This document shows positions 40,208-57,306 of a DNA stretch of 64,000 nt, in pieces (within the stretch, counting starts at the first letter, position 1; each line of letters begins with the position of its first letter). The stretch is taken from NCBI GenBank assembly GCA_964503465.1, contig CAZCYZ010000002.1:6995-70994 (forward strand), given 5' to 3'. The notes beneath the pieces were generated by a model. That model was not told where the DNA came from, made no database searches, and saw only the letters and a list, made by a program, of their open reading frames with translations. The stretch is from an uncultured Gammaproteobacteria bacterium. Its GTDB lineage: Bacteria > Patescibacteriota > Microgenomatia > UBA12405. A program made the translations under genes and the position numbers.

Positions 40208-41572
40208 TTAAAATGGACTTAACTCAAGCAAAACAGCAGTGTTGGGATCAAAGTAAATATTGGTCATGAAACGGTTACTAACAACGTTAAGGCTTTGACT
40301 AGTGGTGGCACCAAGATATTTGGTGGTTTTGAGTTGATATTTACCCGGGTTAAGACCGTTGAAGGTGACAGGAACGGTTTCAACATGTTGACCGCGCGGG
40401 TCGTAGTTGACCAGTAAGGTTTGGATAACTCCATTATTGAGGGAAGATATTGAGGTAACGTGGGAACCATCACCACTACTACTTAACCGTTGACCGGCAA
40501 GTTGATTTAGGAATTGGAGGGCGTAGTAGCGGGGTTTGATTTTGGCACCGCTACTGGGGTGAGTAATCAAGCCCCAGCCGGAGGATTTGTCCGATCGGGG
40601 GGAAGGACCATCGACCGGTTCGAAAGTAAAAAGACGATGAATTTTGCCTGACAGTCGGGTAGAAAGAGAAATAAGATGAATACCAGAAAGGGAGTTGTCA
40701 TACCAGGGGTCGGGTTCGGGGTTGGGGCCAACTTCGGTGATTAAACGTTCAATGTCAAAATATTGAGGATAATCGTCAAGAATACTGTTGAGGTTTTCGA
40801 AATCGTTGTCGTAGTCATCGGGGTTTTTGGAATATTTGTGCCAGGAAATAAAATCAAGCCGGAGACGGTTAGTGGAAGCAGTTTTGAACAACGCTTTGAT
40901 CCAATTACTGTAGTAGGCGGTGATGGCTGGACCACCAATCTTGTAGGAGGTAGAACCGGCACCGTCAACAATGGCTTTGGCGGTTTGGGTATAAAGGGTG
41001 GAGTAGGAAGGGGATTTGCCGTAATGCCAACCACCAAACAAATCGGGTTCATTCCAAACCTCGTAGTAAATACCACTAATTTTCTTTTCGACTGAATAAC
41101 GGTAAGCGGTGGCTTTGACTAGTTGATACCACTGGTTCCAGTCGCTAGGTTCACCGGCGTTCTGGCCATTCTTGGCCATAGAGGCAGTGGTGTAGGAGAC
41201 AGATAGCATTGGTCGGGCGCCAGTGGCCAAGATACTATTAATTACAGTGTCAAGCTTGGAGAAATCGTAGTTTCCTGGTCCCTGATAAACCTGATAATAG
41301 TCAAAGAGATGGTCGACACGGATAAGTTGGGGCTGAAGAGCGCGAACTTGGTTGATAATTGGGCCAATCATGTCTAGAGGTTCTTCTCCGCCTTGGGACA
41401 GGTTTCGCCAAAGAGAGGAGGGAACTTTGCCTTGGATTGATTTGGTGTCGATACTAATGTTAGCTGGAGTGGGAGCGGCAGATTTGCGAAGATCAATGAC
41501 AGTTTTGACTCCAAAAATAAGGAGTGGCAGAGCCAGTAGCAATAGTATGGTCTTAATAGTTTTGTTGGCCAT
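40208..41572 (-). CDS. secreted glycoside hydrolase (GH39/GH5-like TIM-barrel family)
   Basis: Signal peptide MANKTIKTILLLLALPLLIFG; YYEVWNEPD (catalytic acid/base NEP motif). Confidence 0.55.
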   Translation of the reverse strand: MANKTIKTILLLLALPLLIFGVKTVIDLRKSAAPTPANISIDTKSIQGKVPSSLWRNLSQGGEEPLDMIGPIINQVRALQPQLIRVDHLFDYYQVYQGPGNYDFSKLDTVINSILATGARPMLSVSYTTASMAKNGQNAGEPSDWNQWYQLVKATAYRYSVEKKISGIYYEVWNEPDLFGGWHYGKSPSYSTLYTQTAKAIVDGAGSTSYKIGGPAITAYYSNWIKALFKTASTNRLRLDFISWHKYSKNPDDYDNDFENLNSILDDYPQYFDIERLITEVGPNPEPDPWYDNSLSGIHLISLSTRLSGKIHRLFTFEPVDGPSPRSDKSSGWGLITHPSSGAKIKPRYYALQFLNQLAGQRLSSSGDGSHVTSISSLNNGVIQTLLVNYDPRGQHVETVPVTFNGLNPGKYQLKTTKYLGATTSQSLNVVSNRFMTNIYFDPNTAVLLELSPF

Positions 41573-41579
41573 GGATAAT

Positions 41580-42284
41580 TTATTCTAGCGTTATTTTGGT
41601 AAAAATGGCTTTGTGATCGGAATAGAATTTTGGTTGAGGTAAATATTGTGATTGGTAAGACTTTAGTTTTTTCCCCCAGTAAAATATGTAGTCAAGTTTG
41701 CGAAAATCTTTTGGGCGGTTGTGAGAACCACCAAGTTGACTGGTGAGGTCTGTCCAGGGAATTGTGTGATATGCCTGACTTGTGGGGGTGAAGTTGAGGT
41801 CACCAGAGATTATAAAACTGCTTTGTGGGTCAGTAATTGATGTTTCTTGGATAAAATTGTTGAGTTCGGTGATTTGGGAAAGATGAACTGCTTGGTCACG
41901 GTAGTTTTCGCCAAAATAGGTGGCAGTTAAGTGGGTGTTAATAATGTATAACTTGAGAGAAATAATGTGGCTAATTGAAAATCCCATTCCTAGTAGTCGT
42001 CCGGTTACTTGAAGATTAAATAATTTGCCCTGCTTTTTGAATTTGTTGAATTTGAAATCAGAGAATTGGGTGAGTCGGTGGTGAACTAGAGTAATCAAAT
42101 CACTTTTAATTGGGGTCCTGTGGTAGAACGGTTTAATTTTCTGGAGTCGAAAACGTTGTGGGGGAGTGAAGAACTCTTGGAGAGTGACAATATCTGGTTG
42201 AAATTGAAGTATTTGATGTATAAATCGCTGACTATACGGAGAAAGGAAACAACTGTTGAGGGAATAGATGGTGATGCTTTTCAT
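41580..42284 (-). CDS. endonuclease/exonuclease/phosphatase (EEP) family protein
   Basis: DIVTLQE, GDLNFTP, SDH motifs in the canonical order. Confidence 0.7.
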   Translation of the reverse strand: MKSITIYSLNSCFLSPYSQRFIHQILQFQPDIVTLQEFFTPPQRFRLQKIKPFYHRTPIKSDLITLVHHRLTQFSDFKFNKFKKQGKLFNLQVTGRLLGMGFSISHIISLKLYIINTHLTATYFGENYRDQAVHLSQITELNNFIQETSITDPQSSFIISGDLNFTPTSQAYHTIPWTDLTSQLGGSHNRPKDFRKLDYIFYWGKKLKSYQSQYLPQPKFYSDHKAIFTKITLE

Positions 42285-42362
42285 GATTATAAAGAATATA
42301 TCATTATTAGATACTACTAATGTAGTAGATTTGGCCCTACCTTTTGACCTATTGACGCGATT

Positions 42363-45300
42363 TTGAAAACAGGTAAACTTTTTTCAGACTATATTAAGGT
42401 TAAAAATAACAAAATGAATAAAATCTTTCGAAGGATAGGTAGTAATAGTGGTTTGGCTCAAATTCCCTTGGTAATTGGTTTGTTGATAATGGCGGTGGCA
42501 ATACCAGTAGCTACCAAATTAAGTCAGACGGAACAGGATACAAGAGATAAGGCGGCTGCTAAGGTATGTACTGTGGGAAATTTGGGAACTCGTTGTACTA
42601 ATAGTAGTGGTCAGTCTTGTCAGGAATATAGATTAGCGAATTGCGATATTTTATGTAATCAAAATTGTACTGGTGGGGGTGGAGGAAGTACTCCAAAGTT
42701 GCCAAAACCGACTAGTGGTGGCGGTGGAGGATCGACTTGTGAAGCTGGTCGTGAGAACGTTGGTTGCGGGAAAACCGGGCGAGTGAGTGGTGATTGTCGA
42801 CAAGCGGTGACATTTAACTGCTCAAGTAATCAGATGGGAGTTTTGGAAATTAGCAGGGATTGTACTTGTCGGGCGACTTGTGTTAATTCGTCTTCTTGTG
42901 CTGAACCAACCTCTCCACCCCGGGCAACTAATACACCAGAACCGTCATGTCAGGCGGGTCGTCAGGAGTTTTTGGGTGAATGTGGCAAGAAAGGTCGGGT
43001 GTCTACTATAAGGTTTGGATCGAGGTCGTATGAATGCGCCCAGCCGGTGGATTTTAATTGTCAGAGTGGACAAATTGGAGTTATTGAAATGGCTGGACCA
43101 AATTGTGTTTGTAGTGCCAGGTGTTTGAACGAATCTACTTGTGCCGCGGCCACGCCGACTACTAGACCAACTTCTCGACCAACTTCGACTTCGACTCCTC
43201 GGCCGACCACAGCTTGTGTTCGAAATGGATTAACGACAGGCTCAACGTCGAATTGTTGTAGTAAAAGTAGTGTTACTTATGCTGGTACTGGTGGGAGTCT
43301 TGTCACCTGTTGTGCTGCTAATGGAACAGTGGCGGAAAATAAGGCTGAATGTTGTAGTGGTAATGGGACAGTGATCACAGGTGGGCGGGACCAAGGTGCT
43401 TATACTTGTGGTGCTGCGCCAACCTCTACTCCTAGACCGACAGCTACTCCGACAGCGTCAAATTTGGGGAGTTGTGCCGCCACTTCAAGCCATCCAGTAA
43501 TGGCTAATGGTGAGACCTACTGTCAGAGTCCGTATCTTCTTGGTTCTCGAGCTTGGGCTTGTAACAATGGTACGGCAACAGTGAGAACAAACTATTTGAA
43601 TACCCGAAATTGTGACGGTAATGTCCCAACCGGGTTGCCAGTGGGTAACTGTGCTGCCACTGGTAATCATCCAGAGATGACTAATGGTGGATCCTATTGT
43701 CAGACCCCTTATTTGGCTGGTTCCAGAAGGTGGACTTGTAACAATGGGGATGCAACCATATCGCGTAATTTCTTGGCTACTAGAAATTGTGAAGAGACTG
43801 TTCCGACTGGAGCAGGAGGGAGTTGTACAGCAACTACCAATACTCCAGCTCTAGCTAATGGTGAGTCTTATTGTCAGAGTCCTTATTTGGCTGGTTCCAG
43901 AAGGTGGACTTGTAACAATGGAGTAGTATCGGTATCTCATGACTTTTTATTGACTAGAAATTGTAGTGGAACAGTGCCGACTGGATTACCGGCGGGTAAC
44001 TGTGCTGCGTCGCCAAATCATCCGGCCATGACTAACGGTCAGTCTTATTGTCAAAGTCCGTATCTTTTGGGATCAAGAGTTTGGACTTGTAGTAATGGAG
44101 ATGCAGTAATAACTAATAATTACGAGGCGACTCGAAATTGTAATGGAACTATTCCAACAGGATTACCGGCAGGTAACTGTCCGGCCACTTCAAGCCATCC
44201 AGTAATGGCTAATGGTGAGACCTACTGTCAGAGTCCGTATCTTCTTGGTTCTCGAGCTTGGGCTTGTAACAATGGTACGGCAACAGTGAGAACAAACTAT
44301 TTGAATACCCGAAATTGTGACGGTAATGTCCCAACCGGGTTGCCAGTGGGTAACTGTGCTGCCACTGGTAATCATCCAGAGATGACTAATGGTGGATCCT
44401 ATTGTCAGACCCCTTATTTGGCTGGTTCCAGAAGGTGGACTTGTAACAATGGGGATGCAACCATATCGCGTAATTTCTTGGCTACTAGAAATTGTGAAGA
44501 GACTGTTCCGACTGGAGCAGGAGGGAGTTGTACAGCAACTACCAATACTCCAGCTCTAGCTAATGGTGAGTCTTATTGTCAGAGTCCTTACAGATTAGGA
44601 TCAAGAAGATGGCATTGCGACAATGGGGTGGTATCGGTGGAGTCTATATATCTTCTTACTAGAGATTGTCGGGGAACCGTGCCAACTGGAACGACTCCGG
44701 GAAATTGTGCCGCGACTGACGAGACTCCGGTTTTGACTAACGGTCAGTCTTATTGTCAAAGTCCGTATAGGTTGGGGTCAAGAAGATGGGTTTGTAACAA
44801 TGGGGTGGTATCGGTAACAAATAATTATTTGACTACAGCCAATTGTGCCAGTTCATCACTGACTCCAATTCCTGGTTGTGTGATAGTCAATCCTTTAGGA
44901 GGGTGTCTATTAACACAAACAGCGATTGACAATCTAAACGAGTGTAGTGCGATAAGCTCTTTGCCTATTAGTAGCAGTTTGAGGGCGAGTGTATGTAGTG
45001 CTGTTGGTTTGAGGGCAGTGTTACCACTTCATTGTCAATGGTCAAATGGAAGTTGTGTACCTCGTTACAATGTCAATCCTTTTACTTGTAAAGTTGGAGG
45101 AGTGGCTGGTGTCTGTACTACTCGAAGTAACTGTAGTGGAACCTTTGACCAAACACAGGTTGTTGACTGTGGCGGTGCTCTAGGGCCTTTGTATACTGTT
45201 CTGGGTGTTGGCTGTTGTGTGACTGGAGGCACTGGAGGAATAGTAACTCCAATTCCGGGTTGTATTGTTGCTAATCCGGCTGGTGGTTGTTGGTTGACCC

Positions 45301-47294
45301 AGGCTGATTTGAATAATCTTAATGAGTGTAGTGCGATAAATTCTATTCCCTACATAGGGGCGAGTTTAAAGTCAAGTATCTGTAGTGCAGTGGGACTTAG
45401 GCCGGTGTTACCACTTCATTGTCAATGGTCAAATGGAAGTTGTGTACCTCGTTACAATGTCAATCCTTTTACTTGTAAAGTTGGAGGAGTGGCTGGTGTC
45501 TGTACTACTCGAAGTAACTGTAGTGGAACCTTTGACCAAACACAGGTTGTTGACTGTGGCGGTGCTCTAGGGCCTTTGTATACTGTTCTGGGTGTTGGCT
45601 GTTGTGTGACTGGAGGAGCTAGTCCTACCCCAACTGCTACCCCAACTGTTACGGTGACAGGGATTTGTGGTAGTGTTTGTGGAAGAGTCCCCTTACTAGT
45701 GAGGTCAGCTTGTGTTGCTGCGTGTACTAATATTGTTAATAATGGTTGTGCAGCGGGAAGAAATACCTTTATTGATGGGTGTATGACTACTTGTAATAGG
45801 TCGTCGGTGTTGAGGTTGGCGGGTGTTTGTTCGAATATATGTCGTCTGGCCGCCGATGAGATTTGTACTGATATACCAGGTACGGATTGTCCTAATCCGG
45901 GAACTACTACTTGTGAAGATGGTAGGGTACGGGCCTGTAAAGGCGATGGTGCTTGGGGCGAATGGATTACCTGTTTGTCGGGTCAGTGTAACACCGATGG
46001 AACAGAGTGTAAGTTCCCCCCAATATCGCCGTTGCCAACTAAGGGTGTTCGAGGAACACCGACAGGAACCAGGTGTCAAGATGGGGTAAGGGAGTTAAGA
46101 TGTGGAATTCAGGGTCGAGTAACTGGAACTGAATTTGGCTGTGAGCGTCCAGTAGATTTTAACTGTGCCGCAAATCAAATGGGTACGATTCGGGTTAGTC
46201 CTGATTGTCGATGTCAGCCGGTGTGTATGAATTCTTCGGCTTGTAGTTTAATTCCAACTGGTCAGCCGACAGGAACCAGGTGTCAAGATGGGGTAAGGGA
46301 GTTAAGATGTGGAATTCAGGGTCGAGTAACTGGAACTGAATTTGGCTGTGAGCGTCCAGTAGATTTTAACTGTGCCGCAAATCAAATGGGTACGATTCGG
46401 GTTAGTCCTGATTGTCGATGTCAGCCGGTGTGTATGAATTCTTCGGCTTGTAGTTTGGAGCCGACTCCGACTACTGGAAGGGGAATAACACCGGTAGTAA
46501 CAAGAGAGCCGACAACTCCTCCAGGACCAGGTTCATGTGACCAGAAATGTCCGACGAGTGACGGTAAAATCTTGAAAAACTGTACTCCGCCAGATAGTGA
46601 TGGCTCTAGTCAGGATAGCAATTGTGACCGTAGGGGTAGAGTTGAGCCCTGTGGTGGTAGCCAGTACTGCTGTGATGGAAGTAAGTGGAGTACTGACATG
46701 GCAGCTTGCGGAAATGTACCTACCACCCCTCCCGGTTGTGACCAAAAGTGCCCAACAAGTGATGGAAAAATCTTGAAAAACTGCACTCCACCAGACAGTG
46801 ATGGTACCAGTCAGGATAGCAATTGTGACCGTAGGGGTAGAGTAGAATCTTGTGGTGGTAGCCAGTACTGCTGTGATGGAAGTAAGTGGAGTACTGACAT
46901 GGCAGCTTGTGGGTCGGGTAAGTGTAAACGGTGCCCAGCAGACTTTAAGTGTTACACCGATGGGAGTGAGTATCGGTGGTTTGTGACAGGATATGCAATG
47001 GAGGGATTTGAGCTGGTGGCTTCACCGGATACCACTAGTTGTGGTGGTGTGACTCAACCGAGTTATATGGGCAAACAGAAGGGTGATGCCAATTGTGATG
47101 GCTTTGTCGATGGTTATGACTATTCGATTTGGAGAACGGAGTATGTGGATGTTAGCGGCGGTGAGCCATTAGTTCGAGATAATTGGGAGGCTGACTTCAC
47201 TGGTAACGACGGTCTGTGTGATGGAGTGGTGGATGGATACGATTACTCCTTGTGGAGAAATCAATATAAAGATTTAAATGGAGGAGGAAACTAA
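42363..47294 (+). CDS. giant Cys-rich repetitive surface protein (1643 aa) with N-terminal anchor and C-terminal dockerin-like repeat pair
   Basis: About ten 55-aa modules (GNCAAT..HP.M.NG.SYCQ.PYL.GSR.W.CNNG...TRNC); duplicated 70-80-aa modules; C-terminal DANCDGFVDGYDYSIW and DGLCDGVVDGYDYSLW. Confidence 0.7.
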   Translation: MKTGKLFSDYIKVKNNKMNKIFRRIGSNSGLAQIPLVIGLLIMAVAIPVATKLSQTEQDTRDKAAAKVCTVGNLGTRCTNSSGQSCQEYRLANCDILCNQNCTGGGGGSTPKLPKPTSGGGGGSTCEAGRENVGCGKTGRVSGDCRQAVTFNCSSNQMGVLEISRDCTCRATCVNSSSCAEPTSPPRATNTPEPSCQAGRQEFLGECGKKGRVSTIRFGSRSYECAQPVDFNCQSGQIGVIEMAGPNCVCSARCLNESTCAAATPTTRPTSRPTSTSTPRPTTACVRNGLTTGSTSNCCSKSSVTYAGTGGSLVTCCAANGTVAENKAECCSGNGTVITGGRDQGAYTCGAAPTSTPRPTATPTASNLGSCAATSSHPVMANGETYCQSPYLLGSRAWACNNGTATVRTNYLNTRNCDGNVPTGLPVGNCAATGNHPEMTNGGSYCQTPYLAGSRRWTCNNGDATISRNFLATRNCEETVPTGAGGSCTATTNTPALANGESYCQSPYLAGSRRWTCNNGVVSVSHDFLLTRNCSGTVPTGLPAGNCAASPNHPAMTNGQSYCQSPYLLGSRVWTCSNGDAVITNNYEATRNCNGTIPTGLPAGNCPATSSHPVMANGETYCQSPYLLGSRAWACNNGTATVRTNYLNTRNCDGNVPTGLPVGNCAATGNHPEMTNGGSYCQTPYLAGSRRWTCNNGDATISRNFLATRNCEETVPTGAGGSCTATTNTPALANGESYCQSPYRLGSRRWHCDNGVVSVESIYLLTRDCRGTVPTGTTPGNCAATDETPVLTNGQSYCQSPYRLGSRRWVCNNGVVSVTNNYLTTANCASSSLTPIPGCVIVNPLGGCLLTQTAIDNLNECSAISSLPISSSLRASVCSAVGLRAVLPLHCQWSNGSCVPRYNVNPFTCKVGGVAGVCTTRSNCSGTFDQTQVVDCGGALGPLYTVLGVGCCVTGGTGGIVTPIPGCIVANPAGGCWLTQADLNNLNECSAINSIPYIGASLKSSICSAVGLRPVLPLHCQWSNGSCVPRYNVNPFTCKVGGVAGVCTTRSNCSGTFDQTQVVDCGGALGPLYTVLGVGCCVTGGASPTPTATPTVTVTGICGSVCGRVPLLVRSACVAACTNIVNNGCAAGRNTFIDGCMTTCNRSSVLRLAGVCSNICRLAADEICTDIPGTDCPNPGTTTCEDGRVRACKGDGAWGEWITCLSGQCNTDGTECKFPPISPLPTKGVRGTPTGTRCQDGVRELRCGIQGRVTGTEFGCERPVDFNCAANQMGTIRVSPDCRCQPVCMNSSACSLIPTGQPTGTRCQDGVRELRCGIQGRVTGTEFGCERPVDFNCAANQMGTIRVSPDCRCQPVCMNSSACSLEPTPTTGRGITPVVTREPTTPPGPGSCDQKCPTSDGKILKNCTPPDSDGSSQDSNCDRRGRVEPCGGSQYCCDGSKWSTDMAACGNVPTTPPGCDQKCPTSDGKILKNCTPPDSDGTSQDSNCDRRGRVESCGGSQYCCDGSKWSTDMAACGSGKCKRCPADFKCYTDGSEYRWFVTGYAMEGFELVASPDTTSCGGVTQPSYMGKQKGDANCDGFVDGYDYSIWRTEYVDVSGGEPLVRDNWEADFTGNDGLCDGVVDGYDYSLWRNQYKDLNGGGN
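43470..44590. repeat. near-identical tandem direct repeat (~0.4 kb identical core within a 705-bp period) inside the giant gene
   Basis: Identical antisense ORFs reported at 43485..43670 and 44190..44375; DNA identical by eye from ~43470-43885 and 44175-44590. Confidence 0.7.
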
Positions 47295-48579
47295 AATGAC
47301 TATCCGAAGTAAACAGATGTCGGTTGCGTCACTAATAATACCTTTGTTGTTGGTGGCAGCCTTGATAGCTGGTTTAACCTTAGTTAAAACTAATCAAGAA
47401 ACACGAAGGGGGGCGTATTTTGCCAGCACCAAGATGTTGTTACAACCAGAGTCGTCGACAAAGAGGGTGGGGGAGGAAATACCTTTTGCTTTGTATGTGG
47501 AGACTCCTGCAAAAGTAGACTTTGTTAAGGCTAAAATCTGCTATACTAACTTGATAAGTCTGGATGGGAGTGATTTAGATTCAAAGATAGTTGTTAATCG
47601 AGAAGCTTTCGATGTGGCAGTTTTGACAAAGGTGGGGGAGTCAACGATTCCCGAACAGAAATGTTTAACAATGTCGATCAAATCAGAGAAGGCGGCGGAG
47701 AATTTAAAATCCGGATTGGTTCAGGTGGCCTTAATCAAGTTTAAGGCTTTGGCCAAAGGAAACGGTAATTTGGTTATTGACAAAGCCTCTTCACAAGTCG
47801 GCGGTCACAATGCTGGTAAAACCGATAAAAGTATCAAGATTGAAGAGGTGGCAGGAGCTAGCTTCACCATAACTGAAGGTGTAACTGGAGAGTGTGGTTG
47901 GTGTGGGCTTGATTGTATTCGTAAAGCCGCGGGCATGAATTGTATCGATGTAGCTCCGCCAGTTGGACAGAGATGTGTTGAAGTTGATGGTAACTGTGTG
48001 GCTCAACCAATTAGTACCGGAGGAGATTCGGTTTTGAACTACAAGATATTGTTTGGGGGTTTGCAATCAGATGCCAAGTGTGTGGCGAATTGGCCAGTAT
48101 CGATTACTGTTTTGGCAAATGGAGTATCCAAAACTTATAGCCATACTCCAGTCAGGGATGGTGATTCTTTTAGTGGTAGTTTAGTATTGACTGGATTTAC
48201 GGCTAGGGAAGGGGTGGCGGTTTTTATCAAAGGTTCGAAGCATCTTCAGATGAAGTATGGTAAGGACAATCAAGTTGGGGCGTATGCAAAGGCGGGGGGT
48301 GAAATTAGCCTGACCGATTCGGTATCTACCAGTCCATGGTATGTTTTTTCGGGATATCCACTGGTGGCAGGTGATGTTACCGGAGTCAACTCTGATGCCC
48401 AAGATGGATGGATTAATGGAGTTGACTTTTCTTATGTCAAGCAGCGTTCCTTGACACATGAAATGGTGGCAGAAGGAGCGTATCTTCAGGCCGATTTGGA
48501 TGGTAACTGTCAGGTTAACAGTAATGATGTTAACGTATTAAAGATTTCTCTCAATGAAAAACAGGGAGAGCTGTATTAA
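47278..48579 (+). CDS. membrane-anchored protein with cohesin-like N-terminal domain and C-terminal dockerin-like repeats
   Basis: N-terminal TM plus KTNQETRR motif; C-terminal DGWINGVDFSYV and DLDGNCQVNSNDVNVL. Confidence 0.5.
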   Translation: MEEETKMTIRSKQMSVASLIIPLLLVAALIAGLTLVKTNQETRRGAYFASTKMLLQPESSTKRVGEEIPFALYVETPAKVDFVKAKICYTNLISLDGSDLDSKIVVNREAFDVAVLTKVGESTIPEQKCLTMSIKSEKAAENLKSGLVQVALIKFKALAKGNGNLVIDKASSQVGGHNAGKTDKSIKIEEVAGASFTITEGVTGECGWCGLDCIRKAAGMNCIDVAPPVGQRCVEVDGNCVAQPISTGGDSVLNYKILFGGLQSDAKCVANWPVSITVLANGVSKTYSHTPVRDGDSFSGSLVLTGFTAREGVAVFIKGSKHLQMKYGKDNQVGAYAKAGGEISLTDSVSTSPWYVFSGYPLVAGDVTGVNSDAQDGWINGVDFSYVKQRSLTHEMVAEGAYLQADLDGNCQVNSNDVNVLKISLNEKQGELY

Positions 48580-48588
48580 GGAGAAAAT

Positions 48589-49176
48589 ATGAAAAAAGAA
48601 CAAATAATAAGGTTTTTAATTCCAGTAGTGGCAGTGTTGGTAATTGTTGAAAGTGTGGTTCTGGTTACTGGGGCTTTAAAGAGGAATAGAGAAGTGGTGC
48701 AGGATAAGCCGTTAGTTGCGGACGAAGAGTCGCGGTTGATCCAGATGGGTTTGGATGCGCCTAAATCATCGATAGCAGTGGGCGAGAAATTGCCGGTAAA
48801 CTTTAGATTGGTATCAACTAAGGATTTGGCGGTAGACGCCTTTGAGACGTATATTAAATACGATCCGACGGCTTTTGAAGTTTCCGGTTTAAGTTTTAAC
48901 AATGATTTACCAGCTCCAGCGATAGCAAAAATCAGTCGACAAAAAGGGATGATTATTGTTACTTATCTTGTTGATGAGGCGAGGGGTTATCAGTTGAAGT
49001 CGGGGGTTGAAGTGATGTTGGCAAGCTTTAATGTGACCGCTAAAAAAGCTGGTTCGTATGATTTTGAAATTACCACTAGCACTGGTGAGCAAGGCTCTGC
49101 TAGTATGGTAGTAGAGAATGCAACATCGAAGGTGATTCCATTTGATGGTAGCAGTCTAAAAGTTAACGTTTTTTAA
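48589..49176 (+). CDS. cohesin-domain protein (membrane-anchored)
   Basis: VGEKLPVNFRLVSTKDLAVDAFETYIKYDPTAFEV...ASFNVTAKKAGSYDFEI matches the cohesin beta-sandwich signature pattern. Confidence 0.5.
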   Translation: MKKEQIIRFLIPVVAVLVIVESVVLVTGALKRNREVVQDKPLVADEESRLIQMGLDAPKSSIAVGEKLPVNFRLVSTKDLAVDAFETYIKYDPTAFEVSGLSFNNDLPAPAIAKISRQKGMIIVTYLVDEARGYQLKSGVEVMLASFNVTAKKAGSYDFEITTSTGEQGSASMVVENATSKVIPFDGSSLKVNVF

Positions 49177-49185
49177 ATAAAGATA

Positions 49186-49887
49186 ATGAAAAAAACTGCC
49201 CTTAGTTTGGTAATGACCTTGGCCTTGATGGGGGCAGGGGTTAAAGGAGTAATGGCCGGGCCCCATCTGACTTTATCTCCTTCGGCGGGGAATTATACGG
49301 TTGGGTCTGAGTTTACGGTGACAATTGGGGTGGATTCGGGAACAGAGAAAACGGCGGCGATTGATATTTGGGCGAATTTTGACTTGTCCAAGCTGGAGGT
49401 GGTGTCGATTACAAAGACTGCCCCTCCGGATCCAAATAATGACGATTTTCCTTTTAGTTTGGGCCAGAACATTAAGAACAGTGAAGGTAAATTTGATGTA
49501 AGTTGCACCTCAAGTAACATGAGTGGATTGGAAACCGTGGCAATTAAGAGGGACTTGGTGGCGGTAGTGTTTAAAGCTAAGGCTGAAGGAGTGGCATCGC
49601 TTAATTTTAGTTGCTCATCAGGCTCAAGTATTGATACTAATATTTTTAATGCCAGTGCGGTAGATGTAATTGAGTGTTCGAGTAATCAAAGCGGATCTTA
49701 CACTATTACGGCTGCTTCAAGTGGTGGTACGAGCGAGCCAACGGCGACACCAACACCAACGACAGCGGCAACAACAACGACTACAAGTTCTAGCTTGCCA
49801 CAGACTGGGGTGATTGAAAATACGGTTGGATTAGTGGTTTTTGGTTTGATGTCGGTGCTTGGAGCGGCAGTTTTACGTTGGCTATGA
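49186..49887 (+). CDS. cohesin-like surface protein with LPQTG sortase sorting signal
   Basis: Signal peptide; cohesin-like core; Thr-rich linker; LPQTG (49795-49809) followed by hydrophobic segment and RWL tail. Confidence 0.6.
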   Translation: MKKTALSLVMTLALMGAGVKGVMAGPHLTLSPSAGNYTVGSEFTVTIGVDSGTEKTAAIDIWANFDLSKLEVVSITKTAPPDPNNDDFPFSLGQNIKNSEGKFDVSCTSSNMSGLETVAIKRDLVAVVFKAKAEGVASLNFSCSSGSSIDTNIFNASAVDVIECSSNQSGSYTITAASSGGTSEPTATPTPTTAATTTTTSSSLPQTGVIENTVGLVVFGLMSVLGAAVLRWL

Positions 49888-50579
49888 GTAGGGGAGCGAT
49901 TAACATTAAGACAATATTGATTTTGGTTATTTTGGTGTTGGTGGGAGTGTTGAGTGTTTTGGGTATCAATACTGCCAAAACATTGATTGGAAGTGCGGCG
50001 GCTGGAGTTGAGCCCAAAAATGTAATTGCTAAGCCGGATATGGTGACTGATAGTGGCCGGGAAGAGTTTACGGCGAAAGTTGAGTGGACTTCGGAAAAAC
50101 CAGCGATGGGAATTGTCGAGTATGGGACGACACCGGCCAGTTTGCTATTACGGGCAGCAGAATCGGAACAGTCAACCAGCCATTCGGTTAAATTGTCACC
50201 CTTAAAATCAAATACTAGTTATTATTTTCGAATTAAAATAGGGGAAGAAGTCTTTGATAACAACGGTATTCCCTATTCTTTTAAAACTAAGGCGACAACC
50301 GCGAGTGGGAGCAGTCAGCAACAACCAACAGTGGCGCCAACTAAGCCAGTAGGAGCGGCACCAACGGTGGTTAATGATAAAGGTTGCAATCGTGCGACTG
50401 ACTACAATAAGGATGGGGTGATCAATAGCCTTGACTATGTCGTTTGTATGGGTGGCCAAAAGAGTGGTACTCCGTCGGCTAGTAGTAGTGCTAGTAGTTG
50501 CAAGGCAGGAGTGGATTTTGATGGCAATGGGGTGGCGAATAGTCTTGATATGATCAAGTGTTTACAAAACAAGAAGTAA
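49878..50579 (+). CDS. FN3-like domain protein with C-terminal dockerin (two repeats)
   Basis: VEWTSEKPAMGIVEYGTTP...TSYYFRIK (FN3-like); DYNKDGVINSLDYVV and DFDGNGVANSLDMI dockerin repeats. Confidence 0.6.
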   Translation: MAMSRGAINIKTILILVILVLVGVLSVLGINTAKTLIGSAAAGVEPKNVIAKPDMVTDSGREEFTAKVEWTSEKPAMGIVEYGTTPASLLLRAAESEQSTSHSVKLSPLKSNTSYYFRIKIGEEVFDNNGIPYSFKTKATTASGSSQQQPTVAPTKPVGAAPTVVNDKGCNRATDYNKDGVINSLDYVVCMGGQKSGTPSASSSASSCKAGVDFDGNGVANSLDMIKCLQNKK

Positions 50580-50600
50580 TAGGGTAAAATAGCTACCTAT

Positions 50601-50822
50601 ATGGCCATTGTGGTAAAGAAAACAAAAGGTGAGTCGAAGGACGATATAATTGGTAAGTTTCGTCGACTGTGTATTGAGGAGGATATCGCTGAAGAAGTCA
50701 AGAAAAGGACTGCTTATAGCAAACCGTCTATCGAACGTTATGCCAAAAAAAAGATTATTCTTTGGAGGGAAAAGTGTCGAAGACGGGCGAAGAAATTGAG
50801 AAATCGAAGTAGTCATTCCTAA
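50601..50822 (+). CDS. rpsU: 30S ribosomal protein S21
   Basis: KFRRLCIEEDIAEEVKKRTAYSKPSIERYAKKK matches S21. Confidence 0.8.
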   Translation: MAIVVKKTKGESKDDIIGKFRRLCIEEDIAEEVKKRTAYSKPSIERYAKKKIILWREKCRRRAKKLRNRSSHS

Positions 50823-50832
50823 AGTGTAAATT

Positions 50833-51267
50833 ATGCTAAGGGATACAATTAAACAGGAAGTGGTCAAAGCTTTGAAGGCCGGGGATGAGCGGCGGGTGGA
50901 GACATTGCGATTTTTGGTGTCATTGTTGGACAAAAGGGCTCTGGATTTACCGGTAGGGGCAATGAAGGACGAGGAGGAATTGGCAGTTTTAAGAAAAGAG
51001 CTTAAACACAAAGAGGAGGCAAAGGAGATGTTTGTGAAGGGCGAAAGGAGCGATTTGGTGGCGGAGACTGATTATGAAATTGAAGTGTTAAGGGAGTATT
51101 TGCCACCAGAAATTAATGATGAGGAGATTAGGAAAGTGGTAACCGAGATAGTAGGGAATAATAGTGGAGCTAATTTCGGAATGGTGATGGGAATGGTGAT
51201 GAAGAGACTAGCTGGTCAGGTTAGTGGGGATCGGGTAGCTTCAATAGTCAAGGAATGTCTAACTTAG
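50833..51267 (+). CDS. GatB/YqeY-domain protein
   Basis: IKQEVVKALKAGDERRVETLRFLVSLL...; C-terminal NFGMVMGMVMK. Confidence 0.8.
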   Translation: MLRDTIKQEVVKALKAGDERRVETLRFLVSLLDKRALDLPVGAMKDEEELAVLRKELKHKEEAKEMFVKGERSDLVAETDYEIEVLREYLPPEINDEEIRKVVTEIVGNNSGANFGMVMGMVMKRLAGQVSGDRVASIVKECLT

Positions 51268-51593
51268 TTTTGATCAAGCATCCAAGTAATTGGGGTTTGG
51301 AAGAAAAATTGGTGGAAAGGTTGGCGAAGACGGTGTTGAGAGAAAAGAAGCTTGATGGAGTAGAGTTAAGCTTGGTTTTTGTCGGACGAAAACGGGCTAG
51401 AGATTTAAATGTTAGGTATCGAGGGATGAGTTATGTTCCTCAGGTATTAGGTTTTCCAATGGATAAAGAAACAGAAATTGATGGTTTGATACACTTAGGT
51501 GATGTGGTTATATGTACTAATCGGCTAAAGCGGGAGGGACAGGAGATACTGATTGAGTGGTTAAGACATGGGGTGCAAAATTTGTTGAAGTAG
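51255..51593 (+). CDS. YbeY-like protein, C-terminally truncated (lacks HxxxHxxxxxH zinc site)
   Basis: LSLVFVGRKRARDLNVRYRGMSYVPQVLGFPM...LGDVVICTNRL matches the YbeY N-terminal two-thirds; the ORF stops at LRHGVQNLLK before the His triad. Confidence 0.5.
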   Translation: MSNLVLIKHPSNWGLEEKLVERLAKTVLREKKLDGVELSLVFVGRKRARDLNVRYRGMSYVPQVLGFPMDKETEIDGLIHLGDVVICTNRLKREGQEILIEWLRHGVQNLLK

Positions 51594-51607
51594 TCTAGAA
51601 TGAGACG

Positions 51608-53074
51608 ATGTCGGTCTTTCATTTAAAATATCGTCCTCAAAGAATTGCTGACTTGGACTCGGTGGAGGTGGTTGAAGTTTTAACACGAATACTTGAGGGT
51701 GGAGATATTCCGCCGGCTTTTTTGTTTACCGGACCAAAAGGGGCCGGGAAAACTTCAGCGGCAAGAATTTTAGCTCGAGCGGTTAATTGTCAAAAAAAGA
51801 AGGGAATCGAACCTTGTGGGGAATGTGACAATTGTATTGAGGTTGGTGGTGGTCGATCGATAGATGTGTTGGAAATTGATGCCGCTTCGAATCGTGGGGT
51901 GGATGATGCTAGGAGTTTGCGGGAAAAGGCGGTGTTGTTGCCAAGCAAACTCAAAACAAAAGTGTTTATTGTTGACGAGGTTCACATGTTGACCAAAGAG
52001 GCCTTTAACGCCTTGCTGAAATTAATCGAGGAACCACCAATACACACAATGTTTATCTTGTGCACGACGGATGTTAGTAAAATTCCGGAAACTGTTTTGT
52101 CGCGACTGATCCGAGTTGATTTTAAGAAGGGAAGGAAAACCGAACTTCAAAGTGCTTTAAAAAGAGTGATTGAAGGGGAAAAAATTAGTATTGAGGATGA
52201 AAGTTTGAATTTAATTGTGGACAAAAGTGATGGGAGTTTTCGAAATATCCACAGGTTGTTCAATGAAATAGTGTTACGTTACGGTCAGAAAATAAAACAA
52301 GAGCAAGTGGAGGAGTTTTTTAAAACGAAGGGTGGTAGTTATAGTGAAAATGAGTTTGAGAAGGATTTGGGGGTGGGTGATGCCCAGAGAGTAATGACTA
52401 AGTTGGAACAGTTGGCTGAGGTAGGAACAGATTTTGCAAACTTTAGGGAGGGATTGATTAGGTATTTTCAGGAGAGATTGTTGAGTTTTTATGGAGTTGG
52501 AGCCGAGAATTTGGGGGAGCTTAAAAAGGAAGAAGTGGTTAGATTGCTGGGGTGTTTAATTAGGGCGGGGGAGTTGGAGAAATTAGTAGGAATTGATCAG
52601 TTGCCATTGGAGTTGGCAGTGATTGAGTTTTTGGGCGATAAGGAGCCGATTAAAAAACAAGGTGATAGCTTGGAGCCGAAAGTTGAGCCAATGGTTGAGA
52701 TAAAGAAAATCGAAGGAGAGGTAACCCTGGAGGCAATAGAACGTGAATGGGGGAATGTCTTGCGGGTAGTCAAGCCATTTAATCATTCTGTGGAGGCTTT
52801 TTTGAGGGCGGCCAGGCCAAAGGCGGTTGAAGGTAAGGCGTTGGTTATTGAGGTGTTCTATCCGTTTCATAAGGATAGGTTGGAGGAGGAGAGGAACAGA
52901 CAGGTGGTGGAAAAGGGACTGAAAACAGTTTTAGGAGTGGATTTGCATCTGAAGTGTGAGTTGAGTCAGAGTAAGAAGCCACCGCTGGTGATTAAGAATG
53001 AAACGCCGATGGAGCAAGTAACACCTGGAGGGGAGAAGGATATTTACGAGGTGGCCAAGGAAATTTTTGGATGA
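51608..53074 (+). CDS. dnaX: DNA polymerase III subunit gamma/tau
   Basis: FTGPKGAGKTSAARILA (Walker A), CGECDNC zinc module, VFIVDEVHML. Confidence 0.9.
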   Translation: MSVFHLKYRPQRIADLDSVEVVEVLTRILEGGDIPPAFLFTGPKGAGKTSAARILARAVNCQKKKGIEPCGECDNCIEVGGGRSIDVLEIDAASNRGVDDARSLREKAVLLPSKLKTKVFIVDEVHMLTKEAFNALLKLIEEPPIHTMFILCTTDVSKIPETVLSRLIRVDFKKGRKTELQSALKRVIEGEKISIEDESLNLIVDKSDGSFRNIHRLFNEIVLRYGQKIKQEQVEEFFKTKGGSYSENEFEKDLGVGDAQRVMTKLEQLAEVGTDFANFREGLIRYFQERLLSFYGVGAENLGELKKEEVVRLLGCLIRAGELEKLVGIDQLPLELAVIEFLGDKEPIKKQGDSLEPKVEPMVEIKKIEGEVTLEAIEREWGNVLRVVKPFNHSVEAFLRAARPKAVEGKALVIEVFYPFHKDRLEEERNRQVVEKGLKTVLGVDLHLKCELSQSKKPPLVIKNETPMEQVTPGGEKDIYEVAKEIFG

Positions 53075-53182
53075 TTGTTGTTAATTTGTAATTTCTAATT
53101 TCTAATTTATAATCAATTCTTAGCTATCTAACTAATTTTGAAACATTAGAAGTTCAATAAACATTAAAAATTAAATTAAGGT

Positions 53183-53431
53183 ATGTTTGATAAAGCTAAA
53201 ATGTTGGCCCAGGCTTTTAAACTAAAGAGAGCTATTGAGGCAGAGGTTATTATGGTTGATGAGAACGGGGTGATGATTGAGGTTGGCGGGGATCAAAAAA
53301 TTCGGAAATTAGTAATCAATGGGGTGGAAAACAGGGCGGTGTTGGAAGTGATTAACAAAGCGATGAAGAAAGCACAGGAAACTGCGGCTCGTAAAATGAA
53401 GGATATGGGAGGACTCGAGGGTTTGTTTTAA
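53183..53431 (+). CDS. ybaB: YbaB/EbfC nucleoid-associated protein
   Basis: Position between dnaX and recR; size and pattern of YbaB. Confidence 0.75.
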   Translation: MFDKAKMLAQAFKLKRAIEAEVIMVDENGVMIEVGGDQKIRKLVINGVENRAVLEVINKAMKKAQETAARKMKDMGGLEGLF

Positions 53432-53465
53432 ACCCTCAATTTCTAGTTTTTAACCTCTAATTTTA

Positions 53466-54098
53466 ATGGCACAGTTGCCGAAGTCGATTAACAATCTGGT
53501 AAATGCTTTTGGCCAATTACCGGGTATTGGGCCCAAAAGTGCTACTAGACTGGCATTTTATTTATTAACCACTCCGACAACTTATGTGGCTAACCTAGCT
53601 GGGGCGATGTTGGAGGTGAAGGAGAAAGTTAAGGCATGTCGAGAGTGTTATTCGGTGACCGAAAGTGAGTTGTGTGATGTTTGCAAAGATGAGAAACGTA
53701 ACCATAGGCAGATTTGCGTGGTTGAGCGGGCAATGGACATGTTGGCAATCGAGAATGTGGGGGGTTATGGTGGTGTTTATCATGTTTTGGGTGGAGTAGT
53801 AAATCCATTGGAACATGTTGGCCCGGAAGATCTAAAAATTGCAGAATTATTAAAGAGACTTGGTAATTGGTCCGGCAGTGGCCGGACTTCGGATGATCTT
53901 GAGATCATCCTTGCAATGAATCCGACCATGGAAGGGGAGGCAACGGCGCTATATATCAAGAATCAAATAGCAAAAGTCAAAGGTTTGGCAGACATAAAGA
54001 TAACTAGAATTGGCAGTGGTTTGCCGATGGGAGCGGATTTGGAGTTTGCTGATCAGGCAACTATTGCCCGGGCGATGGAGGGACGAAGAGGATTATAA
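53466..54098 (+). CDS. recR: recombination protein RecR
   Basis: HhH N-terminus, C4 zinc finger CRECYSVTESELCDVC, Toprim-like core. Confidence 0.9.
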   Translation: MAQLPKSINNLVNAFGQLPGIGPKSATRLAFYLLTTPTTYVANLAGAMLEVKEKVKACRECYSVTESELCDVCKDEKRNHRQICVVERAMDMLAIENVGGYGGVYHVLGGVVNPLEHVGPEDLKIAELLKRLGNWSGSGRTSDDLEIILAMNPTMEGEATALYIKNQIAKVKGLADIKITRIGSGLPMGADLEFADQATIARAMEGRRGL

Positions 54099-54137
54099 AA
54101 ATCCTTTGATTCACGGATTTTGTTAGAATGATGGTAT

Positions 54138-54614
54138 ATGACATTCTCGATTCCCAAACAAGTATTGCAGGGATTAAAACAGGTGGTGGTGGAAACAGGG
54201 GAGCAGGCGGTAGAGAATACGGTAAAAGCGGTAGATGCGGTAATAAGTGGTAAGGAATTGGTGGCTGATGCCAAAGAAATTGGACAGAAACATGAAGAGG
54301 CACTAAAGAAAAAGGATCAAGAAGAATTGGCTAAGTTGCGTCAAGGAATGGGGAGGAATGTAGAACCGGAAATAAAACAAGTTAGGGATGAAAAAAAACG
54401 GGAGGAGGAGGATAAAGAGAGGGTGTTTTTGGAAAATCTAAAAAGGCAGCGGGAGGCGGAGCAGGCGGAAATGGCGGCGGTAATGTCGTTGGAGTCGGCT
54501 AATCCAGCCAAAAGAAAAAAGAAACGAGGTAGTGCTTTTGCTAAAGGTGGTAAGTCACGACCGTCACAGAGTGATATGTCGGCAACGGGTGAATTTAAAG
54601 GGAAGGTTGATTGA
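54138..54614 (+). CDS. hypothetical charged protein
   Basis: 158-aa Lys/Glu-rich ORF followed by a strong terminator. Confidence 0.4.
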   Translation: MTFSIPKQVLQGLKQVVVETGEQAVENTVKAVDAVISGKELVADAKEIGQKHEEALKKKDQEELAKLRQGMGRNVEPEIKQVRDEKKREEEDKERVFLENLKRQREAEQAEMAAVMSLESANPAKRKKKRGSAFAKGGKSRPSQSDMSATGEFKGKVD

Positions 54615-54702
54615 TGTGCTAAGATAAAGAAAATGAAAATTTCAAAATATTTTGAATTGATCTGTTGTACCTCCTGTTGACGGGAGGTATTAGTGGCTTT
54701 TG

Positions 54703-54734
54703 ACCTCCCAAAATTGGGAGGTTTTTTGTTTTTT
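54703..54734 (+). terminator. intrinsic terminator (cctccc-aaaatt-gggagg plus T-run)
   Basis: 6-bp GC stem then ttttttgtttttt; preceded by a second hairpin acctcctgttgacgggaggt. Confidence 0.7.
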
Positions 54735-54745
54735 AAAAATAATTT

Positions 54746-55609
54746 ATGCAAAATAATAATTTAATAAAATTAATTGGAAATACGCCGGTAATCGAGCTGA
54801 CTGGTTATTCTAGGAAAGGAGTTAGAATTATGGCGAAAATTGAGGGGGGGAATCCTGGTGGGTCGATTAAAGATAGGGTGGGATGGTACTTGATCAAGGA
54901 TGCTTTGGGCAACGGGAGGATTGGGAAGAAGACAGTATTGATTGAATCAACCAGCGGTAATACAGGGATTGGAATGGCGATGATTTCGGCCTCGATGGGG
55001 ATAAAATTTATAGCGGTAATGAAAAATAATGTAAGTTTGGAAAGAAGGAAGATAATAGAAAGTTATGGGGCAACGGCGGTGGTAACAGATGATCCGTTTG
55101 AATACGTGAGGGGAATATTGGAGGAAAGCAGAAATTATTTGTGGCTTAATCAGTATCAGAATATTGCCAATGTATTGGCGCACTATGAAACGACTGGTCA
55201 GGAGCTAGTAAACCAAATACCTGAAGTGACTCACTTTGTGGCCGGAATGGGGACAGGTGGGACGTTAATGGGAGTAGGAAGAAAATTAAAAAGATGGAAG
55301 AAGGTAGTGGAGATTTTTGGGGTCGAACCGTCGGGGGATTCGGCTATACAAGGATTAAGAAATCATGGGAAATATACCCCGGAAATATTTAAGAGGGATG
55401 AACTTGATGGGGTGATGAGGGTTGAAGATGAAGCGGCTTTTGATTTGGCTAGAGATTTGGCAAAACGACATGGTTTGTCGGTGGGAATATCGTCTGGAGC
55501 GGCACTGTGGGGGGCAATAGAAGTAGGCAAAAAGGTCGGGGAGGGGACAATTGTAACTGTATTTCCTGACAAGGGGGATAGGTATTTGTCTACTAAGTTA
55601 TTTAATTAA
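54746..55609 (+). CDS. cysK: cysteine synthase (PLP-dependent, CysK/CysM family)
   Basis: LIGNTPVIELTG, GGSIKDR PLP-lysine motif, STSGNTGIGMAM, GMGTGGT. Confidence 0.8.
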   Translation: MQNNNLIKLIGNTPVIELTGYSRKGVRIMAKIEGGNPGGSIKDRVGWYLIKDALGNGRIGKKTVLIESTSGNTGIGMAMISASMGIKFIAVMKNNVSLERRKIIESYGATAVVTDDPFEYVRGILEESRNYLWLNQYQNIANVLAHYETTGQELVNQIPEVTHFVAGMGTGGTLMGVGRKLKRWKKVVEIFGVEPSGDSAIQGLRNHGKYTPEIFKRDELDGVMRVEDEAAFDLARDLAKRHGLSVGISSGAALWGAIEVGKKVGEGTIVTVFPDKGDRYLSTKLFN

Positions 55610-55629
55610 AATTTAGGTAAAATCAGATT

Positions 55630-57006: not shown

Positions 57007-57023
57007 ACCGTTTATAACAATGT

Positions 57024-57305: not shown

Positions 57306-57306
57306 T

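Follow-up and report, generated by a model that had tools for sequence, protein, structure and literature searches.

A cysteine-rich mosaic dockerin protein heading a conserved cohesin-dockerin cassette in Shapirobacteria-like bacteria of the candidate phyla radiation

The gene described here lies in a 64,000-nt stretch of contig CAZCYZ010000002.1 (assembly GCA_964503465.1), referred to below as the window. It is a real gene and encodes a probably secreted protein of a Shapirobacteria-like bacterium of the candidate phyla radiation (CPR), in which a leader is followed by at least ten types of Cys-rich modules, separated by Pro/Thr/Gly linkers, and by a C-terminal dockerin. This gene (gene 1) heads a tightly packed cassette of five genes, coding in total for three dockerins and for three cohesin-type modules within 2.6 kb downstream of gene 1. 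Judged by this architecture, the chances are slightly better than even that the product is a disulfide-rich mosaic cargo held on the cell by cohesin-dockerin pairing, probably as an adhesin or a ligand-binding stalk. What appears to be new is a non-cellulosomal cohesin-dockerin display whose cargo consists of orphan Cys-rich modules, a function deduced from domain architecture. A sequence-only reading of the same DNA had already proposed a Cys-rich modular surface protein with a C-terminal dockerin, and a protein of this kind, secreted or on the surface, is supported.

The open reading frame (ORF) at 42363-47294 (+ strand) is unbroken over 4.9 kb and would give 1643 aa if started at TTG 42363, as the sequence-only reading had it. 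The frame was correct, but the likely start is ATG 42414. This start is favoured because its 1626-aa product is identical to an NCBI protein (P0001, from one 146,967-bp contig), the sole database entry identical to it, and matches the N-termini of the orthologues; the TTG is disfavoured because it sits within a promoter-like site (Table 1). Shuffled sequence would be expected to contain as many such sites as the region does. A word-indexed search with the whole protein returned nothing besides the protein itself. That the gene is real is supported by the single 4.9-kb ORF, by the identical NCBI protein and by dN/dS values of 0.1-0.3 between old repeat copies. The product contains 140 Cys (8.5%), 12% Gly and 10.8% Thr, and is also rich in Ser. 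Its GC content at third codon positions (GC3) is 0.33 and its GC3 skew 0.31, compared with 0.41-0.48 and 0.5-0.7 for most neighbouring genes of the + strand, gene 2 being intermediate. These values may stem from the amino-acid or codon bias of a Cys/Gly/Thr-rich protein, or from a different evolutionary history.

From the N- to the C-terminus the order is N0 (the leader), S1, E1, E2, H, A1-A8, B1, B2, C, D, E3, E4, F1, F2, G and dockerin, the small Cys-rich modules spanning about 1,450 residues between a leader of about 40 residues and the C-terminal end. All 140 cysteines fall inside modules, every module has an even number of them and the linkers have none. This fits the pattern expected of intramodule disulfides (70 possible) and agrees with the initial suggestion of disulfide-stabilised extracellular domains. 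The A units follow the consensus G.C.A....P.(L/M).NG.SYCQ.PY..GSR.W.C.NG, units 1-4 and 5-8 forming a 705-nt super-repeat of four units. F1 and F2 share the pattern C...CP......L..C.PP.SDG...DS.C...GR.E.CG...YCC......W.TDM..C. The modular plan first proposed, with at least four families, thus stands in outline; at least ten types are counted, at least five further single-copy ones (S1, H, C, D and G) among them. Its details needed revision: eight A units of 58-59 aa replace some ten of ~55 aa; the pair put at ~125 aa is indeed a pair, of 118 aa each (module B), of which only the identical 3' parts had been delimited; and a supposed pair of ~71-aa units is module E, 58 aa long and present in four copies, of which the two closest to the N-terminus have diverged. 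The fourth family was correctly described as two-copy (F1/F2, 201-nt period, 90% identical).

Table 1. Coordinates of gene 1, its modules and repeats, the other cassette genes and further genes of the window
Feature	Position	Strand	Remarks
Promoter-like site (TTGACG, 16 nt spacer, TAAACT)	42352-42379	+	5' of ATG 42414; consensus match only
Gene 1, Cys-rich modular dockerin protein	42414-47294	+	1626 aa from ATG 42414
Leader N0, N-terminal (aa 18-67)	42414-42563	+	Conserved; in 25 otherwise unrelated Cys-rich proteins
Module S1	42564-42671	+	6 Cys; single-sequence hidden Markov model (HMM) finds no other protein
Modules E1 and E2	42738-43142 (42738-42902; 42948-43142)	+	8 Cys each; diverged E-family copies
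Module H	43215-43409	+	8 Cys (C, CC, CC, CC, C); no homologue found
Array of eight A units	43467-44876	+	Tandem repeat; 58-59 aa (177/174 nt), 4 Cys each
407-nt exact tract, copy 1	43479-43885	+	0 mismatches to 44184-44590
407-nt exact tract, copy 2	44184-44590	+	705-nt period
Modules B1 and B2	44874-45614 (44874-45227; 45261-45614)	+	118 aa, 12 Cys each; 3' 212 nt exact
212-nt exact tract	45018-45229 = 45405-45616	+	387-nt period
Module C	45663-45872	+	10 Cys; no HMM-detected homologue
Module D	45888-46013	+	6 Cys (C...C......C.....W....C....C......C)
Modules E3 and E4	46059-46456 (46074-46247; 46281-46454)	+	58 aa, 8 Cys each; within 191-nt exact tracts
191-nt exact tract	46059-46249 = 46266-46456	+	207-nt period
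Modules F1 and F2	46533-46913 (46533-46736; 46737-46913)	+	8 Cys each; sole widespread module
201-nt period repeat	46536-46711 vs 46737-46912	+	90% identical; many differences at codon third positions
Module G	46914-47078	+	4 Cys (CK.CP..F.CY..G.EY.WFV.GY.M.GF); directly precedes dockerin
Dockerin	47079-47291	+	Two Ca-loop + helix segments (DANCDGFVDGYDYSIW; DFTGNDGLCDGVVDGYDYSLW); invariant Cys per loop
Gene 2, adaptor-like	47278-48579 (start 47278 or 47296)	+	N-terminal transmembrane (TM) segment, then cohesin-like domain, Cys insert (variable), beta domain, dockerin
Gene 3	48589-49176	+	N-terminal TM anchor + cohesin, no Cys; Pfam Cohesin 31.5 bits (cutoff 24.1)
Gene 4	49186-49887	+	Cleavable-looking signal peptide, cohesin, Thr/Pro linker, LPQTG; Pfam Cohesin 34 bits
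Gene 5	49878-50579	+	N-terminal TM, fibronectin type III (FN3)-like domain (Pur_ac_phosph_N), dockerin; PF16656 30.6 bits
TrwB/VirD4-like coupling ATPase	26297-28468	-	In compositional island
Two large ORFs without Pfam match	30759-32129, 32469-33380		In compositional island
M23 peptidase-domain protein	33392-34831		In compositional island

The leader begins with a basic n-region, followed by G-L-A-Q-I-P-L, a hydrophobic stretch of about 22 residues and KL(S/V)Q.(N/E)QDTR.KAA. Nine columns of its alignment (A6) are invariant, and no significant match was found in Pfam or NCBIfam. A leader of about 40 residues, of the form [KR]..G[FL]AQIPLMIGLLLMAVAVPVATKLVQ.NQDTRNKAA, is shared almost unchanged by proteins with unrelated mature parts, and the motif that follows the TM stretch, (V/L).QNQ(D/E).R..A, is seen also in gene 2 (47296-47420) and in many F-module proteins. 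With a conservation that goes beyond that of ordinary Sec signals, the leader may represent a dedicated sorting or processing signal.

The C-terminal domain was compared with the dockerin pattern of PF00404, two 12-residue EF-hand-like loops (D-x-[ND]-x-[DN]-G-x-[IV]-[DN]-x-x-D), each followed by a helix. Both loops are found at the C-terminus of gene 1, and the dockerin fold as well. Loop 1, DANCDGFVDGYD, is fully canonical, and the AlphaFold2 (AF2) model of the F2-G-dockerin segment has helices at 128-141 and 169-184. Foldseek with this model gave one weak dockerin match. When a 25-sequence dockerin profile was compared with PDB sequences, solved dockerins came out at the top (5m2o_B, E 3e-5, 32% identity), and 20 of the 25 aligned relatives match PF00404 at E<0.1 (best 1.6e-6). 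Since the profile finds solved dockerins first and these relatives match the family, the C-terminal module is, on profile evidence, a divergent but genuine dockerin, and the two dockerin-like Ca-binding repeats originally noticed are confirmed. An invariant Cys occupies loop position 4 in both Ca loops (DANCDG / ..CDG; alignment A2). The gene-1 dockerins fall into two subtypes, DANCDG..FTG and DADCSG..FDCDG. Module G occurs in 28 proteins and, in those aligned, adjoins a dockerin of the DANCDG type; it may be a dockerin partner resembling an X-module.

Neighbouring genes of the cassette overlap or are separated by no more than 9 nt, and no terminator lies among them. Gene 1 has no C-terminal LPXTG/hydrophobic/basic tail, so that its attachment to the wall could only be indirect. 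The cohesin-like N-domain of gene 2 is not detected by Pfam; in hhalign it matches the gene-4 cohesin with a probability of 94.5% (E 7.5e-8, 152 columns). The C-terminal dockerin of gene 2 is strongly conserved (..DLDGNCQVNSNDVNVLKISL..KQGELY; Pfam Dockerin_1 E 0.0039), and its tail (DLDGNCQVNSNDVN.LK.SL..KQGQLY) hardly varies between loci whose identity is otherwise only 35-45%. It may thus be the gene-2 dockerin that mediates the core interaction conserved in the cassette. The sortase anchor of gene 4 is recognised by Gram_pos_anchor PF00746 (23.3 bits, cutoff 20) and by TIGR01167 (17.7, cutoff 15.9; alignment A1), and the dockerin of gene 5 scores 23.1 bits with Dockerin_1 (cutoff 22.9). 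None of the cassette proteins yielded a catalytic domain.

The order of the cassette (Cys-rich dockerin protein, adaptor, TM-cohesin, LPXTG-cohesin, FN3-dockerin) is conserved, and the window fits loci L001-L005, in which genes for GH39, RseP and RRF lie upstream and those for S21, YqeY, YbeY, DnaX and RecR downstream. The same order, next to S21/YqeY/YbeY/DnaX, is found in the cassette-spanning loci among 23 genome loci (L006-L028), most of which are labelled Candidatus Shapirobacteria (Microgenomates, CPR). This conservation is based on about 15 of the 28 loci, those whose contigs span the region; the others end at contig ends. The species of the window is not among the 28, as its cohesins reach 55% identity at best. 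The contigs of five of the loci (L006, L007, L018, L020 and L028) and protein P0003 bear the database name 'uncultured Gammaproteobacteria bacterium' or 'Candidatus Methanoperedens sp.', and these are probably mis-binned or mislabelled records of metagenome-assembled genomes.

Sequence comparison identifies gene 1 as the variable member of the cassette, with conserved ends and an interior replaced wholesale across Shapirobacteria. Its syntenic orthologues (363-910 aa, 6-9.5% Cys) share the leader and the dockerin end. When eight of them were compared all against all, the window protein aligned to any of them only over aa 18-116 and 1368-1643, and 76% of it aligned to none of the eight; BLAST alignments to the orthologues run through the S1 stretch (aa 18-116). 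Pairwise coverage among gene 1 orthologues is 7-55%, while genes 2-4 can be aligned over their full length (25-63% identity). In length the window protein exceeds every orthologue, by a factor of about 1.8. In some genomes a gene-1-type leader is fused to a gene-2-type body and dockerin, or there are two gene-2 paralogues (L016, L021, L022): leaders of gene-1 type carry gene-2-type dockerins at L016 6275-9415 and L021 7089-9397, and an F module is inserted in gene 2 at L022 7916-9295. Modules have thus been exchanged within the cassette in some loci.

The modules, initially suggested to be domains of unknown fold, match no known sequence family: neither the whole protein nor ten separate modules gave anything significant against Pfam, NCBIfam, PHROGs or PDB sequences, the sub-threshold dockerin excepted. 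An exhaustive HMMER search of 1.84 billion representative proteins with aa 369-1568 gave 112 matches, nearly all to module F or G; A-type units were found in five proteins only, and none matched B, C or E. Module B has no homologue in this set or among metagenome contigs, where scans revealed no relative of modules B-E and none of gene 2. Module HMMs applied to 143 collected proteins recovered the leader in 25, the dockerin in 42, G in 28 and F in 109, with A in five other proteins and E in one other; S1, H, B, C and D were found only here. The E-family HMM finds four copies in the gene 1 protein and one in a relative (L014, E 5.7e-7).

Module F, of about 63 aa (C..CP..dG.LrnC.PP..DG...dS.Cn..GR.E.CG...yCCP..gg.WTtdM..C), forms more than 100 clusters at 50% identity (P0002-P0113), is often found in tandem and, in the few proteins scanned, stands beside FN3-like or He_PIG domains. 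It lacks a model in both Pfam and NCBIfam and may constitute a new domain family. The AF2 models of gene 1 modules are of small beta modules. For F2-G-dockerin (66-row alignment) the mean predicted local distance difference test (pLDDT) score is 86.4, F2 reaching ~87-96 and the beta-rich G 85-95; among the Foldseek matches listed, none was attributable to F or G. For an A di-unit (12-row alignment, pLDDT 72.7) a three-stranded antiparallel sheet is predicted per unit. The A unit resembles fibronectin type I (FnI) 'finger' and sushi modules in its length of about 59 aa, its four Cys, its conserved Trp and its tandem, bead-on-string arrangement. However, its Cys spacing (16, 12, 17) and the position of its Trp differ from those of sushi modules. 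The A profile found among PDB sequences only the complement control protein (CCP)/sushi modules of factor H, non-significantly (E 0.017-0.5), and there was no match to Pfam Sushi or fn1. Membership of the sushi/CCP (PF00084) and fibronectin type I (PF00039) families was rejected on these marginal scores and on the differing Cys/Trp pattern, and the likeness would be a resemblance, at most a convergence.

Repeats were identified by repeat finders and by direct offset comparison, and all four repeat systems (Table 1) are far beyond chance. The ~0.4-kb identity at a 705-bp period reported in the sequence-only reading extends over 407 nt without a mismatch. Diverged module copies have dN/dS of ~0.1-0.3 and dS>1 (dN 0.11 and dS 1.05 for F1/F2), and the module duplications are therefore old and under purifying selection. 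The exact tracts are sharp-edged, the limits of two of the three differing from those of the modules, and are best explained by recent gene conversion, because tracts with zero differences adjoin copies that have diverged to this extent. A simple recent tandem duplication was rejected as their origin, only 407 of the 705 nt being identical and the remainder ~62-66% identical with dS>1. Of the recent duplication or recombination first suggested, it is thus recent recombination that holds, gene conversion being favoured over simple duplication. The periods of 705, 387, 207 and 201 nt are all multiples of 3, so that unequal recombination would alter the length of the product and not its frame. 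No flanking inverted repeats were found (one 16-nt pair with 88% complementarity lies inside gene 1), nor any homopolymer or simple sequence repeat (SSR) in 42240-42480. On/off phase variation of gene 1, also suggested originally, was rejected on account of the in-frame periods and the lack of an SSR or invertible promoter; size variation by repeat recombination is plausible.

Repeats of this kind carry a risk of assembly collapse, as had been anticipated. In the Logan k=31 assembly of SRR8925802, two contigs located by exact look-ups of neighbouring proteins correspond to 40826-43508 (L030) and 46880-57366 (L029) with 100% identity to the window. L030 ends after 30 nt of the first exact repeat of at least 31 nt, and L029 begins with the final 30 nt of the last such repeat, as expected of a k=31 graph. 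No paper mentioning SRR8925802 was found. The closest orthologue, which also has E and A modules (L014 5609-7800, JBBTXE010000002.1), has a run of N inside its own internal repeat, where ..AAVPTTAAQLGTILKNL.. is found two times; assembly evidently often breaks genes of this class. It is rather unlikely, if less so than the three rivals to the display reading discussed below, that the 407-, 212- and 191-nt tracts were mis-resolved by short reads and that the true repeat number differs or strain alleles have been mixed. The k=31 assembly confirms only its two segments and breaks at the repeats, the sole database copy comes from one contig, the relative has an N-gap in its repeat and the protein has about double the length of any orthologue. 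However, the junction between units 4 and 5 is a normal inter-unit junction (..PTGLPAGNC..), unlike the sequence before unit 1, there is one leader, one dockerin and an unbroken frame, and the sequence next to each exact tract differs between its two copies on the left as well as on the right. A path that is to use all of the sequence therefore has to run through each tract two or more times. The assembled copy number is thus probably a minimum rather than an inflation, and the true number may be higher.

In the display reading favoured here, the leader would carry the protein across the membrane, the Cys-rich modules would fold outside the cell, and the Ca-binding dockerin would dock the protein non-covalently onto one of the three cohesins encoded downstream: the LPXTG wall-anchored cohesin, the membrane-anchored cohesin or the cohesin-like adaptor that itself bears a dockerin. 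The cell would then bear a small non-enzymatic cohesin-dockerin display system with gene 1 as its variable cargo, the interior of which has been expanded in this genome by module duplication, probably followed by gene conversion. Most probably the cargo would act as a long, multivalent adhesin or ligand-binding stalk in attachment to a host cell or particle, and repeat recombination would change its length in frame without switching the gene off. More tentatively, and with the odds against it, the cassette might be a CPR-specific 'adhesosome', a cohesin platform anchored in wall and membrane and displaying a fast-evolving, disulfide-rich mosaic adhesin, in which the modules (FnI/sushi-like A, the widespread F and the orphan B, C, E and H) set the host cell or surface to which an ultra-small episymbiont attaches. 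If so, gene conversion and in-frame repeat expansion would tune reach and valency, and the leader would serve Microgenomates as a dedicated sorting signal.

Several observations weigh against display by cohesin-dockerin pairing. The dockerin of gene 1 scores 14.7-15.8 bits with PF00404 (E 0.016-0.035), below the 22.9-bit cutoff, and its loop 2, D-F-[TGNDGL]-C-D-G-V-V-D-G-Y-D, is canonical save for a 5-residue insertion at position 3, an insertion absent from loop 2 of relatives with ADFNCDGKVD. The gene-1 dockerin subtype does not, by eye, track the cohesin subtypes of genes 3 and 4 across loci; as the two do not covary, no partner cohesin was assigned. Were the leader an uncleaved anchor, the protein would be fastened at its N-terminus as well as its C-terminus. 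Neither a sortase nor a disulfide-forming enzyme was seen in the window. Finally, the flanks and both ends of gene 1 were independently reproduced by the Logan assembly, and the order and number of repeats in 43509-46879 were not.

A second possibility is that the cassette is a polysaccharide-degrading machine, with gene 1 as its carbohydrate-binding component and the modules as novel carbohydrate-binding modules (CBMs) for plant or microbial glycans. A GH39-family glycosidase is encoded two genes upstream in the window and directly upstream in L005, and recurs in relatives. Moreover, a 'cellulosome' has been reported for Ca. Shapirobacterales BG1-G2 and Ca. Roizmanbacterium, cohesin- and dockerin-domain proteins having been detected by metaproteomics in BG1-G2 (Bell et al. 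2022, ISME J, PMC9123182), and dockerin proteins of Saccharibacteria have been suggested to target host glycans (PMC10633639). The BG1-G2 proteins come from the same order-level lineage and very likely belong to the same cassette family; their detection indicates expression of related proteins and speaks for the display reading too. However, cellulose degradation was inferred in that report from domain names alone, and the hypervariable Cys-rich protein is not described there (PMC9123182). No paper pairing Shapirobacteria with dockerin was found in the literature. None of the three dockerin-bearing proteins of the cassette has a catalytic domain, the GH39 gene lies on the opposite strand and its product has its own N-terminal anchor and no dockerin, no multi-cohesin scaffoldin is present and no module matches any CBM family. 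Assignment as a cellulosome was rejected within the window, where no dockerin-bearing enzyme or CBM was found and each cohesin protein has one cohesin. Since the cassette, unlike the reported 'cellulosome', includes no dockerin-bearing hydrolase, degradation seems quite improbable here.

Equally improbable is a structural role, in which the protein would be a disulfide cross-linked surface layer or matrix, a spacer or a protective coat, held by the cohesins without a specific ligand, its variability reflecting relaxed constraint or evasion of phages and predators. The high Gly, Thr, Ser and Cys content, the bead-on-string architecture and an interior that is not conserved among orthologues would suit such a coat, and the position of the cassette amid housekeeping genes suggests a constitutive envelope role. 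Against this, the modules are under purifying selection (dN/dS 0.1-0.3), and the conservation of F across more than 100 protein clusters argues for specific folded functional units rather than filler. Presentation on or by a type IV pilus after processing by prepilin peptidase, with the leader as a class III (prepilin-type) signal, is very unlikely: the leader pattern [KR]..G|[FL]AQIPLMIGLLLMAVAVPVATKLV shows much stronger conservation than ordinary Sec signals do, and a few members give sub-threshold matches to pilin or pseudopilin N-termini (GspH 0.028 in two members, ComGE 0.02, UpsB 0.05), but the Pfam and NCBIfam models of prepilin N-terminal methylation are unmatched, Pro replaces Glu+5, position -1 is Ala in some members, and the dockerin and adjoining cohesins already offer an anchoring route. 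Membership of the type IV pilin/class III signal peptide family was rejected on the +5 Pro and the unmatched TIGR02532/PF07963; a Gly does precede the hydrophobic stretch in most members.

Several known systems bear comparison with the cassette. In Ruminococcus flavefaciens, ScaE is an LPXTG-anchored cohesin that holds the non-catalytic adhesin CttA via an X-dockerin, and this pair would be the closest functional analogue; more broadly, the anchoring scaffoldins and X-Doc dyads of cellulosomes are comparable. In both cases an LPXTG protein with a single cohesin would hold a non-enzymatic, substrate-binding protein through a C-terminal dockerin that follows an accessory module (G in gene 1). 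By sequence profile, the nearest solved dockerin (5m2o_B) is a group 1 dockerin, also of R. flavefaciens, and it too has an atypical second loop. In contrast to ScaE/CttA and to cellulosomes, the cassette has no enzymes, no multi-cohesin scaffoldin and a CPR host, and gene 1 differs from CttA in its orphan Cys-rich modules and in the invariant Cys of each Ca loop. The cohesins of genes 3 and 4 differ from those of cellulosomes in reaching only 31-34 bits with Pfam; that of gene 2 escapes Pfam altogether. The NagH/NagJ toxin complexes of Clostridium perfringens (PDB 2ozn) provide a non-cellulosomal cohesin-dockerin pair. Within the CPR there is a precedent for an envelope dockerin protein in SEML1_0315, an essential dockerin-domain envelope protein of Saccharibacteria thought to act in host contact (PMC10633639). 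Like the cassette, both exemplify the use of cohesin-dockerin modules for assembly or display outside plant cell-wall degradation. Unlike gene 1, they carry known enzymatic or lectin domains, and neither a Cys-rich mosaic nor a conserved five-gene cassette has been described for them.

Across the whole window (1-64000) each 2-kb piece has a GC skew of +0.16 to +0.55, an extreme strand asymmetry of a strength unusual in a bacterial replichore. At third codon positions the skew is +0.5 to +0.74 in most genes of the + strand, the exceptions being the genes at 30-35 kb and cassette genes 1-2, and -0.44 to -0.68 in genes of the - strand. These signs indicate that the + DNA strand is G-rich whichever strand is coding. 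A compositional island at ~26000-35000 (GC 0.52-0.535 at 30-34 kb, compared with ~0.44 elsewhere; weak GC3 skew of 0.07-0.28) may be an integrated mobile or conjugative element (Table 1).

How CPR bacteria (Patescibacteria) attach to other cells or surfaces is largely unknown outside Saccharibacteria, and the locus offers a concrete and testable candidate: a conserved, housekeeping-linked cohesin-dockerin display cassette with a hypervariable, non-enzymatic first gene. Its composition calls into question whether the cohesin and dockerin proteins of Shapirobacterales form a cellulosome, as has been published. The analysis also defines several extracellular domain families for which no models exist, chiefly F, the G-dockerin dyad with a Cys in each loop being another, and draws attention to a class of genes that short-read assemblies systematically break or under-count.

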